From an uncultured archaeon (GTDB lineage Archaea > Asgardarchaeota > Lokiarchaeia > Sigyniarchaeales > Promethearchaeaceae): a stretch of 32,000 bases of DNA. Shown here piece by piece: positions 6,949 to 12,080 of this stretch. Positions within the stretch are counted from its first letter, which is position 1. The number at the start of each line of letters is the position of its first letter. Location: the NCBI GenBank assembly GCA_964426185.1, contig CAYRPF010000016.1, positions 1 to 32,000 of the forward strand, in the 5' to 3' direction. A program made the position numbers and the translations under genes. Below the pieces are notes generated by a model that saw only the letters and a list, made by a program, of their open reading frames with translations, was not told the origin of the DNA and did not search any database.

Positions 6949-8406
6949 CTATAGATCCTTGAGGCTATCTAAAATATCCACGATTTTTTGCCCACTTTCT
7001 CGCAATGTTTTAAACAATCCTGTTAATAATTCTGTGGATCCAGCAAGAGTTTTATAGAAAAGCATCAAGCTAAATTGCATTGGCACACTAATGATCGCAC
7101 CAGAGATAATCATCATTTGTTGACTCAATTCTCCGTATAATTGTTCTCTTTTAATCAATTGCTGTTCGGTGAAATTTGAAGTAGTTTGTTGATCCGAATT
7201 TCGGCCATATTGAGCAATTTCTTGATATAAATTTGATTTTAATTCACTGAAAGGAATTCCTAGATCTGTTAGGGCTTTTTGCGCTCCTTGATAATAATTT
7301 TGGAGGATTTCTTCAGCTGACAATTTATCGATGTTCTGAATAAATACTTCTGGTGCTATTCCGGAGAGGACTTGCAGAAAATAGTCTTTTAAATCATGTA
7401 TCACTGAAAGAGGAGTTAATTTAGCAGCATTGTTTTTCATAAAGAGAAAAATATGTCCATAGACTCTGCGAATTTCATCATTACTAAACAATTTTTCCAG
7501 TAATTGCCCTTTTTCATTAAAAATATGCACACTGAGAAATCCTAACACTTGGAAAAATTTATCTTCATCATTCGTAAAATGATCAAATAATTCAAATGGA
7601 CTCATTTTCGCTGTTTTTTTTATCAATTTTCGCAACGGAACACGCATTAAACCTGCGGAATCTTCCATCATTTCGTCTAATTGATCAATATCTATTTGGT
7701 TGGTGATCTTTTTCCAAATATTATCAGCTTGCGATTCAAAGGCGCTGCGTTCTCCTAAAAACTGTTGATAATAGTGTTCTTTATCAAAACCTTCAATCAA
7801 TTCAAAACTGGGAAACTCCTCTTGTGGGATAATTTGGCAGTGAAATTCAAAATAGGGATCGCCATGTAAAGCATTTTTAGTATTATGCAAGATTATCCGT
7901 TGATCTTTTCCCTTTAATTTTAACACAAAACTACTGCATTGAGTTAATAATCCTGCCATTAGAGCTCCATAACAATTCTGGTTGTACCAAAATTGATCAA
8001 ACGGTAAATTATCACGAAGTTTATCCTTCCCAATATCAAATGTCATTGGATCAATTTCAATTTTATATTTCAAAATAGGTCGCTCAGGATCACTACGATC
8101 CCATTCAGTAGTATATTTCTGCATGGGAGTTCCAAAGTAAATTTGCCACATAAGAGGGATGTATTCTAAGACTTTTACAGGATCTGAGGGAAACATTCGA
8201 AAAACAGCTGTTTGTCTTTGAGCACTTTCATCAGCTGCGGTGTACCCTAATTTATAACTTAAGTCAACAGCCATTTTTGGATCGTTTGTGATTTCAAATA
8301 GCTGGCGATAAATTTCGCGATAATAGAGTTGATAAAACAATGAAGGAACATGACGGCCCAAAGCGGTTCCTGCCTTTAATGCAATCCACTTAAAAGTATT
8401 GCCCAC
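6949..8406 (-). CDS. protein with N-terminal Bet3/TRAPP-V4R-like domain and helical C-terminal region
   Basis: LFYQLYYREIYRQL...DLSYKLGY resembles the Bet3 N-terminal helices; TKNALHGDPYFEF resembles the V4R terminus; GTG start with GGAGGT upstream, overlapping the previous gene by 17 nt. Confidence 0.55.
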   Translation of the reverse strand: MGNTFKWIALKAGTALGRHVPSLFYQLYYREIYRQLFEITNDPKMAVDLSYKLGYTAADESAQRQTAVFRMFPSDPVKVLEYIPLMWQIYFGTPMQKYTTEWDRSDPERPILKYKIEIDPMTFDIGKDKLRDNLPFDQFWYNQNCYGALMAGLLTQCSSFVLKLKGKDQRIILHNTKNALHGDPYFEFHCQIIPQEEFPSFELIEGFDKEHYYQQFLGERSAFESQADNIWKKITNQIDIDQLDEMMEDSAGLMRVPLRKLIKKTAKMSPFELFDHFTNDEDKFFQVLGFLSVHIFNEKGQLLEKLFSNDEIRRVYGHIFLFMKNNAAKLTPLSVIHDLKDYFLQVLSGIAPEVFIQNIDKLSAEEILQNYYQGAQKALTDLGIPFSELKSNLYQEIAQYGRNSDQQTTSNFTEQQLIKREQLYGELSQQMMIISGAIISVPMQFSLMLFYKTLAGSTELLTGLFKTLRESGQKIVDILDSLKDL

Positions 8407-8899
8407 TTGATTTTACCTCCTGTTCTATCTGAAATTCATGAATACAAGATTTATTACCTAAAGCTTTACTTTCGATAACTTCACCACTTATAACCTTATA
8501 ACCACTTCGTTCTAAAATTTCTTGAATCATCCCCACGCTAATATTGCATCCGGGAATTTGTATATCTTCATATTTGTATTTGCAAAGCGCACAATTCTTG
8601 TCTTCAACGTACAACTTATTTTCATTCTGTAATACAGATACTTTGCTATTCAAGGTGATTTTATATAGTTCCTTGACTAAATTTGGTAAGTTTGAAGAAT
8701 TTGGGGATAATTCCTGGAAAAAAGTTGCACCAATATTTGCTCCCATGGATTTTAATCTGTGAAAGATCTCTTCTTCACTCAGATCAAACTGCTTCATAAT
8801 TCTCTGAAGCCAGTATAACGCATTCCGCATTTGATTAAAGCCCATTTTTGGGGTAATTAATGATTTCCGAGTTAAATTTGTGAGTACGGGTTCCGTCAT
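8390..8899 (-). CDS. V4R/Bet3(TRAPP)-like domain protein, probable Zn site
   Basis: LKSMGANIG (cf. Bet3 LDKMGxNIG), then CALC...GCNISVGMI...ESKALGNKSCIHEF. Confidence 0.7.
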   Translation of the reverse strand: MTEPVLTNLTRKSLITPKMGFNQMRNALYWLQRIMKQFDLSEEEIFHRLKSMGANIGATFFQELSPNSSNLPNLVKELYKITLNSKVSVLQNENKLYVEDKNCALCKYKYEDIQIPGCNISVGMIQEILERSGYKVISGEVIESKALGNKSCIHEFQIEQEVKSSGQYF

Positions 8900-9021: not shown

Positions 9022-10407
9022 ATGGAAATGAAAAAAAAACATCAGGAGACACAATGGAAAAATCGCCCGTATTGTGCTCGATGCAAAAAAGAATATGATA
9101 CTCCATTTTTATGGTGCCCAGAGTGTAATAATTTACTTGAAATCAAACCTTTGCACATTGATCATAAACCCGATCTTAAAAAATTCTGGGATTTTACAGA
9201 TTTCTTTCCACATTTTTCTAAAAAAGTTTCTTTGAAAGAAGGAAACACCTCCATTTTAAAAATCCACAATATTCCAGAGTTGCGTAATACATTAATGAAA
9301 TTAGAGTTTCGTAATCCTACGGGTAGTTTTAGGGATCGCGCAGCTGCATTACTTGTTTCAGATGCCCTTTCCCGAAAATCATCGGATATAATCACAGTCA
9401 GCACCGGTTCATTTAGTATTAGTATTTCTGCTTATGCCAGTCGAGCTGGATTAAAATCTTTGAATTTTCTCCCAGAGAATTTAGAATTAACCAAAATAGA
9501 ACAGATGAAGATTTATGGTTCTGAAGTTCACTTTAGTGGAAAGTGTATTAAGGAAGCCATGGAAGCTGCTGAAAAATTTTTACAAACCGAAACCCAACGA
9601 AATATTTATGTTCCTTTACCCAACCAAAACATTCTTACCATTGAAGGTCAGAAAACTATCGGTTTGGAAATTGCCCTTCAAAATCCAGAAATTGAAAATA
9701 TTGTTGTTCCTCGGGGATCGGGGACATTAGTATATTCTATTTACAAAGGGTTGCTAGATGCACGCGAATCTGGTTGGATTGATCAAATTCCCCATATTTA
9801 TTCTGTTTCTTTAAAGGAATCTGCTGATGCTCGGTTGGCTGAATCGTTAGAAATTAATGATCCTATTTTACTCTCAGAAGTCAGCCGTATTTTGCAAGAA
9901 ACTGATGGAAAGGAGATTGCAATTTCAGGGCAAAAAATGGTAGAACAAGCCTTAGAATTGGCAAAACTGGAAGGTATTTTCATTGAACCTGCATCTGCTT
10001 CGGTTTTAGTGGGTATTAAGCAATTAAATGAGCAGAATTCCCTTGATTTATCTCGAACAATCACAGTTTTAACCGGTTCAGGAATCAATGCTATGAATCT
10101 TTTTGCGTCGCAAATGCGTGAAGTGAAAAAGGCATTATGGGGGGTTACAGCGACTTCAACCAAAAAATTTGAAATACTCAGGATCATTGCTGAAGGAAAA
10201 GCTCATCACGGTTATGGTATTTGGAGTATGCTGGGAAAAAAGCGCAGTATTCAATCAATTTACCAACATTTATCGCAATTGGAAAAAGAAAATCTAATTT
10301 ATAATTCTCGTCCAAGTGATAAACGAGCACAATACGAACTTACAGAAAAAGGACTGCAAGTATTTCGACGGATGAGGGAATTAATGGAAATTAAAGCCAA
10401 AAAGTAA
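9022..10407 (+). CDS. threonine-synthase-like PLP fold-type II protein (Schiff-base Lys replaced by Arg) with N-terminal Zn finger and C-terminal winged-HTH
   Basis: CxxC...CxxC, SLKEGNT, NPTGSFRDR, EGQKT and EGIFIEPASA; C-terminal HGYGIW...SIYQHLSQLEKENLI...YELTEKG (PadR/ArsR-like). Confidence 0.8.
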   Translation: MEMKKKHQETQWKNRPYCARCKKEYDTPFLWCPECNNLLEIKPLHIDHKPDLKKFWDFTDFFPHFSKKVSLKEGNTSILKIHNIPELRNTLMKLEFRNPTGSFRDRAAALLVSDALSRKSSDIITVSTGSFSISISAYASRAGLKSLNFLPENLELTKIEQMKIYGSEVHFSGKCIKEAMEAAEKFLQTETQRNIYVPLPNQNILTIEGQKTIGLEIALQNPEIENIVVPRGSGTLVYSIYKGLLDARESGWIDQIPHIYSVSLKESADARLAESLEINDPILLSEVSRILQETDGKEIAISGQKMVEQALELAKLEGIFIEPASASVLVGIKQLNEQNSLDLSRTITVLTGSGINAMNLFASQMREVKKALWGVTATSTKKFEILRIIAEGKAHHGYGIWSMLGKKRSIQSIYQHLSQLEKENLIYNSRPSDKRAQYELTEKGLQVFRRMRELMEIKAKK

Positions 10408-10453
10408 GGGAAGATTTATTTCAATGATATTTATATAAAAGAATATACAAGGT

Positions 10454-10504
10454 GAAACTTTAATATATAGTAGTAACTTTAGTAACTTAAGCTTATTTTA
10501 CTAA
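10454..10504 (+). promoter_or_regulatory. BRE/TATA-like promoter followed by a 26-bp palindromic operator candidate
   Basis: GAAACTTTAATATA at 10454-10467; TTAGTAA-CT-TAAGCTTA-TT-TTACTAA at 10479-10504 (11 of 13 positions pair). Confidence 0.55.
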
Positions 10505-10525
10505 GTAAGATCCGAAGTGAAAATT

Positions 10526-11152
10526 ATGTCAGATGATTTAAAATCGGAGCTAGATCAAAAAATAATTTCGCAAGAAAGAAATGCAATATTGACAAAGGGA
10601 AGCTTTACTTCTCTTCAAGTTGCACTTGGCGCTTTAATGACTGCCCTGGAAACCGTTTCCACCATTCTCTTAAGCATTTACATCCCACAAACTAACGGAT
10701 ACTTCAATTTAGGGGATAGTGTAATTTTTATTACTGCTCTCCTCTTTGGTGCCTATATTGGTGGATTTACTGGAGCTTTCGGGGCGGGTTTAGCAGATGT
10801 CATTTTAGGATACTATATGTATGCCCCTATCACTTTCGTGGTGAAAGGATTAGAGGGTCTGGTTGTTGGCTGGATATATGAAAAATTCCGCACCAATCCT
10901 AACGGATTAAAAAAATTCAGTTTTAAACTATTGGCGATTATCTGTGGCGCGCCTTTCATGGTTGGGGGTTACTTTTTGGCTGAATTTTTTATTCTTAGTT
11001 ATGGTTGGGCAGCCGCAGCTGAATTAATTCCGAATTTACTCCAAGTTGGGTTAGGTGCAGTAATTGCCCTTCCAATTGTAAATTTGTTGGAATGTGTCCC
11101 TATAATTACCTCAATTCGGGAAAAACCAGTGGAAACGCCTGTTTCTTCTTAA
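10526..11152 (+). CDS. ECF transporter S component (HmpT/PdxU-like, possibly for vitamin B6)
   Basis: IPQTNGYFNLGDSVIFITALLFG, GAGLADVILGY and APITFVVKGLEG; about 6 TM segments; ATG at 10526 preferred over GTG at 10517. Confidence 0.8.
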   Translation: MSDDLKSELDQKIISQERNAILTKGSFTSLQVALGALMTALETVSTILLSIYIPQTNGYFNLGDSVIFITALLFGAYIGGFTGAFGAGLADVILGYYMYAPITFVVKGLEGLVVGWIYEKFRTNPNGLKKFSFKLLAIICGAPFMVGGYFLAEFFILSYGWAAAAELIPNLLQVGLGAVIALPIVNLLECVPIITSIREKPVETPVSS

Positions 11153-11276
11153 GGTGCAAGTAATTTTTTCAATTTTTTCTCTAATCTTTTAATTTACATT
11201 TTCAACTATTCGAAAATTTTTTGGGTAATTGATTTTATTAATAGTTAACTACTTACTGGCTTTGGAGAAATTAAAT

Positions 11277-12080
11277 ATGAATCGATTTGTTTTAGGCGGA
11301 AATTGGAAAATGCAGATTGTGGAAGTAGAGAGTGCAGTTAAGATTGCTAAAGAATTATCTTTCGCTTTAGATGATTTGAATTTGAAAAATGTGGAGGTTT
11401 TTATTGCTCCCTCTTATACTGCACTTTATGCAGTGGGACAAGCAATTAAAGGAACAAAGTTGAAGTTAGCAGGACAGAATATGTATTTCCGAGATAAAGG
11501 GGCCTTCACCGGCGAAATTTCACCTGATTCACTTTTAAATGCTGGATGTGAATATGTTATTTTGGGCCATAGTGAGCGTCGTCGAATATTTGGTGAAACT
11601 AACGCCCAAATTAACCAAAAGATGAAAAAAGCTTTAGAAAAAGGTTTAAAACCAGTGCTTTGTATCGGCGAAACTGCACAAGAACGCATGGATGGTAAAA
11701 TGGAAGAAGTAAATCGCATTCAATTGGAAGAATCTTTAGCTGATATTGCCCCGGAGCAGTTAAGCCAAATTGTGATTGCTTATGAACCAGTTTGGGCAAT
11801 AAATAATCCATTTCTAAATCCAAATGTGGAAATTAAAACTGCCACACCCGCACAAGCCGAGGATGCCCATAACTTTATTCGATCTTGGTTGAATAAAAAA
11901 TTTGGGGAAGAATACGCTAAAAATATCCCACTACAATATGGAGGTTCGATGAAGCCTGCAAATTGTAAAGGATTGTTAGAACTTCAAAATATTAATGGTG
12001 GTTTAATTGGCGGAGCATCTCTATCTGCAGAATATTTCATTCCGATTGTCAAATCTGCTATAGAATTAATTGATTTTTAA
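11277..12080 (+). CDS. tpiA: triosephosphate isomerase, bacterial/eukaryotic type
   Basis: GNWKM, GAFTGEIS, GHSERR, AYEPVWAI, YGGS and GGASL; ATG at 11277 with GGAGA upstream. Confidence 0.93.
   Translation: MNRFVLGGNWKMQIVEVESAVKIAKELSFALDDLNLKNVEVFIAPSYTALYAVGQAIKGTKLKLAGQNMYFRDKGAFTGEISPDSLLNAGCEYVILGHSERRRIFGETNAQINQKMKKALEKGLKPVLCIGETAQERMDGKMEEVNRIQLEESLADIAPEQLSQIVIAYEPVWAINNPFLNPNVEIKTATPAQAEDAHNFIRSWLNKKFGEEYAKNIPLQYGGSMKPANCKGLLELQNINGGLIGGASLSAEYFIPIVKSAIELIDF

Follow-up and report, generated by a model that had tools for sequence, protein, structure and literature searches.

A threonine synthase-like protein with an appended winged helix-turn-helix: a candidate vitamin B6 regulator of Archaea

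A gene carried by the 32,000-nucleotide stretch of Lokiarchaeia DNA analyzed here (the window) encodes a protein that combines a threonine synthase (ThrC)-like domain devoid of the catalytic lysine with a C-terminal winged helix-turn-helix (wHTH), and that is probably a dimeric, vitamin B6-sensing one-component repressor of B6 uptake and synthesis. The anatomy of the protein, its conservation, the linkage of the genes and the co-occurrence of the regulator with a palindromic motif were directly observed; the ligand, the polarity, the binding to DNA and the absence of catalysis were inferred, with no biochemical or expression data. That B6 genes are regulated through the palindrome, with DNA binding deduced from sequence comparisons, is considered very probable indeed; that the putative regulator acts by repression, as inferred, highly probable; and that its inferred ligand is a B6 vitamer, quite probable. 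These partial judgments overlap, and the statement as a whole is put no higher than probable. It also appears likely, with somewhat more reserve, that an archaeal family named threonine synthase, distributed among Asgard archaea, Bathyarchaeia, Desulfurococcales and Thermococci, is the B6 regulator of these archaea, a fold-type II PLP pseudoenzyme that senses free PLP or PMP with no Schiff base formed and uses the palindrome AAGTT-N2-AACTT to repress a B6 ECF importer as well as pdxST, convergently with bacterial PdxR.

The coordinates of the features considered are collected in Table 1. In Pfam searches, residues 69-352 of the regulator matched PALP (E 1.5e-49) and residues 385-449 matched PadR (E 1.9e-5), the latter with 25 bits, just under the 27-bit gathering cut-off; PF03551 (PadR) matches were present in many homologues as well. 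The AlphaFold2 model (mean pLDDT 93.6) consisted of a confident ThrC fold, a low-confidence linker and then a separate wHTH, arranged as helix-helix-helix-wing-helix over residues 377-460, in agreement with the appended wHTH announced in the preliminary description of this DNA. Foldseek gave the threonine synthase 2ZSJ as the best fold match (TM 0.81 by target), and the wHTH alone yielded only weak PadR/MarR/Fur matches among PDB sequences. The N-terminal CxxC/CxxC was found, by alignment, to be common to ordinary archaeal ThrC-like proteins. In the recognition helix, the YQH of residues 414-416 is conserved at 97-99% across the family, which fits a single operator common to all of it. A homodimer model through the ThrC interface scored 0.83, the best control reaching 0.00; the mark set for this score is met by 20 of 30 solved pairs and by 1 of 23 single chains, and the runs showed a contact agreement of at least 67% and a pLDDT of at least 81. 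Dimerization via the ThrC-like domains is thus predicted from modeling, with the caveat that the model may pass through its resemblance to solved ThrC dimers.

Table 1. Features of the regulator gene, the following intergenic region and the S-component gene in the window.
Feature	Positions	Strand	Basis or remark
Regulator gene, ThrC-like pseudoenzyme + C-terminal winged HTH	9022..10407	+	461 aa; ATG 9028 possible alternative start
CxxC...CxxC putative Zn-ribbon (C18, C21, C32, C35)	9073..9126	+	alignment
Fold-type II PLP (PALP) domain, proposed sensor + dimerization domain	9226..10077	+	Pfam, Foldseek, dimer model
Arg104 replacing Schiff-base lysine	9331..9333	+	AGG codon; alignment
Ser130 + Phe131 replacing Asn87 + Thr88 (T. 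thermophilus ThrC numbering)	9409..9414	+	alignment
Thr206 replacing Arg160 of T. thermophilus ThrC	9637..9639	+	alignment
Gly-rich cofactor phosphate loop PRGSGT, retained	9709..9726	+	residues 230-235; alignment
PadR-like winged helix-turn-helix	10150..10401	+	Pfam, AlphaFold2, alignment
Operator site 1 (predicted), 16.7 bits	10446..10463	.	overlaps likely BRE/TATA element
Likely TATA box of S-component gene, TTTAATATA	10459..10467	+	sequence inspection + same-genus comparison; inferred, no transcription start data
Operator site 2 (predicted), 9.8 bits	10465..10482	.	directly 3' of likely TATA box
ECF S-component, HmpT/PdxU2 type, predicted vitamin B6 importer subunit	10526..11152	+	Pfam, PDB sequence search, alignment

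The NPTGSFRDR stretch with its AGG codon and the PRGSGT loop, both pointed out previously, are indeed present in the sequence, and in alignments with four threonine synthases of solved structure, Arg104 took the place of the lysine that holds PLP, which is Lys61 in the T. thermophilus enzyme. A private mutation or an assembly error was ruled out, given that contigs from three public runs cover the codon with no difference listed there and that Arg occupies this position in 91 of 91 close homologues from Lokiarchaeia and Heimdallarchaeia. In T. thermophilus ThrC, Thr88, Lys116 and Arg160 are substrate-side residues, Thr88 lying on the carboxylate side and Arg160 binding the substrate phosphate. 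Thr88 and Arg160 are replaced in the regulator, and Lys116 is kept as Lys158, which is present in 107 of the 108 wHTH-fused members. The fused family also keeps the cofactor-side features F103, D105, R106, the GxG loop (with G232 and G234 nearly invariant), E322 and T/S351. An Asn of ThrC contacts the 3'-O of the cofactor, and the subclade of the regulator has Ser there. The proposed change of STGN to STGS (residues 127-130) is real in the window protein, but it does not extend to the family, being specific to this Asgard subclade, with Asn in most other members.

More distant fused proteins were found in other Asgard groups, Bathyarchaeia, Desulfurococcales and Thermococci, and those of the Thermococcales and most TACK members also carry Arg. 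The lysine is absent from 99 of the 108 fused members, compared with its presence in all 36 unfused ThrC-like proteins. A tree built from the catalytic (PALP) domain alone united the fused proteins in a single clade (FastTree support 0.87), which sits among Lys-bearing archaeal ThrC-like proteins. On this tree, subclade A (support 1.00) groups the window protein with the Thermococcales and Desulfurococcales members and has Arg in 80 of 92 sequences, nine others making up two nested groups with Lys; in subclade B, Ile, Leu, Val, Met or Asn is found instead. The expectation that the Lys-to-Arg replacement would be conserved in such fusions was thus met by every close homologue, but not by nine of the 108 fused members (approximately 8%), in which Lys is found. 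As judged from the sequences, the loss of the lysine would be typical of the fused family and not required, since nine members have Lys and the operator is still there; these nine might bind the cofactor covalently and use it to sense another signal. The Lys groups (L070, L073, L078, L081 and L082; P0092, P0094 and P0095) are nested within the Arg clade, an apparent reversion, and the five Lys-bearing Lokiarchaeia loci keep tandem operators of 14-17 bits at the S-component gene. At six subclade B loci with Ile, Leu or Val, the regulator gene is divergent from that of the S-component, and a variant site, roughly TAGGCT-N2-AGCTTA, was seen.

The suspicion that similar fusions are misannotated in other archaea is consistent with the P. 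furiosus (AAL81530, Q8U123) and P. horikoshii (BAA30512) members, both named threonine synthase. The best NCBIfam match of the window protein, PRK05638 "threonine synthase", covers residues 18-448, HTH included, with 265.8 bits, below the cut-off of 421; TIGR00260, the thrC model, gave 81.5 for a cut-off of 167.1, and all PRK models were likewise below theirs. With its 442 positions, PRK05638 extends over the HTH, and a Thermococcus member scores 799.6 bits against it, far over its cut-off, so that in effect it models the fused family and its name looks like a misannotation. The closest named relative of the regulator is that of Ca. Harpocratesius repetitus (Lokiarchaeia/Promethearchaeota), with 69% identity. 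No description of the ThrC-wHTH family was found in the literature within reach, from which many subscription papers were missing. The fusion may figure in older domain surveys; surveys of archaeal HTH proteins such as that of Aravind and Koonin (1999) reportedly listed an HTH-threonine synthase fusion in archaea, with no function given.

The next gene encodes, as had been anticipated, an HmpT/PdxU-like S-component (PF07155, E 1.3e-35), whose sole match among PDB sequences was HmpT itself (4HZU chain S, E 1.3e-17); its frame is open from GTG 10517, and the ATG at 10526 agrees with the start context of a relative. HmpT binds pyridoxamine (PMC4860826). Its six pocket residues E41, H84, Q87, Y120, N140 and Q143 correspond to D, K, E, Y, N and Q in the window S-component, that is, three identical, two conservative and one changed, and among archaeal homologues His84 is Lys in 58 of 60, Gln87 is Glu in 57 of 60, and Glu41 is Asp or Glu. 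With these two pocket positions differing from HmpT, the vitamer that would be transported remains uncertain; Lys and Glu there might mean the binding of pyridoxal or of a phosphorylated vitamer.

The anticipated co-localization with B6 genes was confirmed: a related S-component, often with ECF A and T genes after it, occurs in 59 of 91 family loci from Asgard and TACK archaea, and pdxS/pdxT adjoin the regulator gene in three genomes (G238, G007 and G097) and in five or six more of one Asgard family. In the TACK sample, pdxS was found in the genomes of 5 of the 40 best full-length members compared with 140 of 301 genomes overall, and this scarcity suggests that the regulator often serves B6 auxotrophs. 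Several neighbors were recorded apart from this. In thirteen Heimdallarchaeia loci, the regulator and S-component genes are separated by one for a protein of about 115 residues, with a signal-peptide-like start and no Pfam match; this gene is divergent from that of the S-component and may use the same operator. Upstream of the regulator in the window (6949-8899, minus strand), a divergent gene pair encodes a 169-residue TRAPP/V4R-like protein with a weak MsvR match and a 485-residue protein of unknown nature; it is kept beside the regulator in Promethearchaeum, Lokiarchaeum and Harpocratesius, and no operator was found in the spacer between this pair and the regulator gene. Downstream, a triosephosphate isomerase gene (11229-12080), which scores far higher with bacterial-type models than with the archaeal-type PRK04302, is co-oriented with the S-component gene and probably lies outside the regulon.

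Within 10440-10525, the stretch proposed for binding assays in the preliminary description, a palindrome was located that goes together with the presence of the regulator across genomes. Site 1 is the best site in the window and the best intergenic one in the genome. The tandem pair of sites 1 and 2 ranks first genome-wide (26.5, the next tandem having 20.2, in 3.26 Mb) and is what two same-genus genomes conserve of the intergenic region, while an alternative TATA-like element at 10430-10437 showed no conservation in the genus; a sigma-70 promoter scan is uninformative for Archaea. An imperfect 26-bp palindrome at 10479-10504 and a TAGTAACTT direct repeat both overlap site 2; this palindrome was ruled out as the operator, as it is not conserved in the two same-genus genomes, where conservation stops near 10487. 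Autoregulation was also discarded, as a site was found at only 6 of 91 regulator genes, nearly all in divergent arrangements, and none before position 9022. A wider regulon in the source genome was likewise unconvincing, with the other single sites of at least 12 bits lying mostly within ORFs.

Across genomes, an unseeded search in 56 S-component upstream regions recovered the palindrome de novo, in the full form TTaAAGTT-NN-AACTTtAA, with 14.1 bits, compared with 7.0-7.8 bits in ten control searches with other genes or shuffles. A score of at least 10 bits was reached by 47 of the 56 S-component promoters versus 22 of 870 other genes, several of these 22 being pdxS or having a divergent promoter in common. 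The pdxS promoters had been left out of motif training, and the Thermococcales were wholly held out. In this order, the pdxS promoter carries a site in 17 of 17 genomes with the regulator (15 at 10.9 bits or more and two at 7.1 in the same position) versus 0 of 11 without it (3.4 bits at most), and S-component promoters score 17.6-21.8 bits in 6 of 6 genomes with the regulator versus 1.5 in 3 of 3 without it, in which a decayed remnant of the site is visible. Among Asgard and TACK genomes, 15 of 22 pdxS promoters have a site when the regulator is present, versus 1 of 29 when it was not found; the lone exception is a genome of 73% completeness with regulator-bearing relatives, and absence calls in this set are approximate. 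Sites are also missing from some pdxS promoters in spite of the regulator, three examples having been noted (G282, G543 and G048); in G007, pdxS lies downstream of the regulator in one operon and has no site of its own. The genomes are related and the counts therefore not independent, so that their independence is overstated, but the Thermococcales contrast holds within a single order.

Regarding position, the sites overlap or directly follow TATA-like boxes across loci. Those of the Thermococcales pdxS genes and of the Heimdallarchaeia begin right after such a box, often as tandem pairs 24 bp apart, which should cover the start site. In the window and some Desulfurococcales, the overlap of site 1 with a BRE-TATA-like string inflates its conservation. 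A mere BRE-TATA element was ruled out as the whole explanation for the palindrome, considering how rarely other promoters score at least 10 bits and that Thermococcales lacking the regulator keep TATA-like boxes and lose the site.

The source genome (3.26 Mb, 92% complete) was inspected for B6 and threonine genes. The preliminary description called for a search for a separate canonical thrC; none was found in this genome, the regulator being its only ThrC-like gene detected, and neither was homoserine dehydrogenase, so that the organism is more readily seen as auxotrophic for threonine than as reliant on the regulator gene for it. Neither pdxS nor a PF08543-type kinase was found in this genome. 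ECF T components are encoded elsewhere in it: a cluster at the end of contig C21 (37678-40779) comprises an ECF T gene, a fused ATPase and a partial S-like gene, and a 13.3-bit site at C39:19047, inside an ORF, lies 256 bp before another ECF T gene. Both are candidates for a shared energizing module. As a separate observation, an AIR-synthase-like gene (PurM/ThiL/HypE superfamily, about 340 residues, below all NCBIfam cut-offs) lies 3' of the S-component in six Bathyarchaeia-like loci and near the regulator in three further ones; it is a candidate for a missing archaeal B6 kinase, and the source genome contains a 37%-identical homologue without an operator (C97:3767-4813).

These observations could be integrated in a model in which the regulator, predicted to dimerize through its ThrC-like domains, would read the half-sites of AAGTT-N2-AACTT with its two C-terminal winged helices. 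The former active site would bind, reversibly and as a co-repressor, a phosphorylated B6 vitamer, most likely PLP or PMP, the lack of the lysine making for a reversible binding that suits a sensor. Two operator copies over and after the TATA box would block the loading of TBP/TFB or of the polymerase, as inferred from their position. The importer would then be off when B6 is plentiful and expressed when it is scarce, with the S-component working with an ECF A/T module whose genes lie at other places in the genome; where relatives possess pdxST, the same protein would control B6 synthesis. Repression is suggested by the overlap with, or location after, the TATA-like box, and, given that every conserved target supplies B6, repression would be expected of the form with bound ligand. 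The earlier inference of a one-component regulator of vitamin uptake is supported at the level of sequence, where each of the checks suggested for it turned out favorably.

Within the same regulon and operator, the effector could be different: a PLP-amino acid aldimine, an amino acid sensed with bound PLP as in GabR, or PLP attached to another lysine such as Lys158. This is judged unlikely. In its favor, Lys158 is almost universally kept despite the loss of the substrate-side Arg160, nine members have the canonical lysine, and MocR regulators use bound PLP for amine sensing (PMC5320631). However, the conserved targets serve without exception in B6 uptake or synthesis, the motif-bearing promoters show no recurrent gene of amino-acid pathways, and the carboxylate-side Thr is replaced by the bulky Phe131. 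Binding to the same sites could alternatively result in activation under B6 scarcity, or in repression independent of any ligand. Bacterial PdxR is an activator, with PLP acting as an anti-activator (PMC11619246), and in some loci the strongest site is over or upstream of the TATA-like element; yet sites that start right behind this element in Thermococcales and Heimdallarchaeia, often in tandem, differ from those of RbkR, a proposed activator whose sites in Sulfolobus are upstream of promoter elements (PMC5397151), and genomes without the regulator have kept the promoter and lost the site. We regard this option as quite improbable.

There is very little room for the remaining possibility, namely that the protein works as a threonine synthase or as another PLP lyase, perhaps bifunctional, and is linked to the transporter only incidentally. 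It accounts for the NCBI and UniProt names, the intact fold and the lack of any other detected ThrC-like gene in the source genome, but it faces the loss of the Schiff-base lysine and of the Thr88 and Arg160 equivalents, the failure to find homoserine dehydrogenase in that genome, the existence of a separate unfused ThrC-like gene in Pyrococcus and Bathyarchaeia, and a motif whose presence follows that of the regulator gene. The B6-sensing repressor was retained as the preferred reading.

Compared with known systems, the regulator resembles ThrC and the proteins of NF004170/PRK05638 in fold, predicted dimer interface and cofactor phosphate loop, and differs from ThrC by lacking the catalytic lysine and substrate-side residues and by its added wHTH. 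In Archaea, ThiR is an inactive thiamine-phosphate-synthase-like repressor whose design, like that of RbkR, is parallel to that of the regulator. RbkR joins an enzyme domain to an HTH, and its operators, which span lineages, serve genes for both the synthesis and the transport of a vitamin (PMC5397151), but both proteins use other enzyme folds and serve other vitamins, RbkR is still an active kinase, and in the regulator the HTH is C-terminal. PdxR and the MocR proteins (GabR, TauR) share with it a winged-helix DNA-binding domain, a sensor derived from a PLP enzyme and a regulon of pdxST plus a PdxU-type transporter (PMC5320631). In contrast, MocR proteins have an N-terminal GntR wHTH followed by a fold-type I aminotransferase domain and usually activate, whereas the regulator has a C-terminal PadR-like wHTH, a fold-type II ThrC domain without lysine and sites whose position suggests repression. 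It therefore fails MocR/PdxR membership on both domains and meets only the regulon feature, by comparative genomics alone. MocR proteins have been stated to be absent from Archaea (PMC5320631), and no described B6-responsive regulator was found for Archaea in the literature.

The ThrC-wHTH family can thus be considered a well-supported candidate for an undescribed family of archaeal vitamin B6 regulators, and this reading is directly testable in Pyrococcus furiosus, where the regulator, pdxS and the site are all present. Correcting the PRK05638 "threonine synthase" annotation matters in itself, as it can make threonine auxotrophs, Asgard archaea included, look prototrophic in metabolic models. 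In addition, many archaeal ECF S-components that carry a riboflavin-type annotation receive a B6 role from the operator; in most prokaryotes, B6 transporters are still poorly known (PMC9997740). If the proposal is true, the family would provide a reagent for measuring the cellular sensing of free PLP, and the gap in archaeal B6 regulation would be filled by a regulator built on a different PLP fold.
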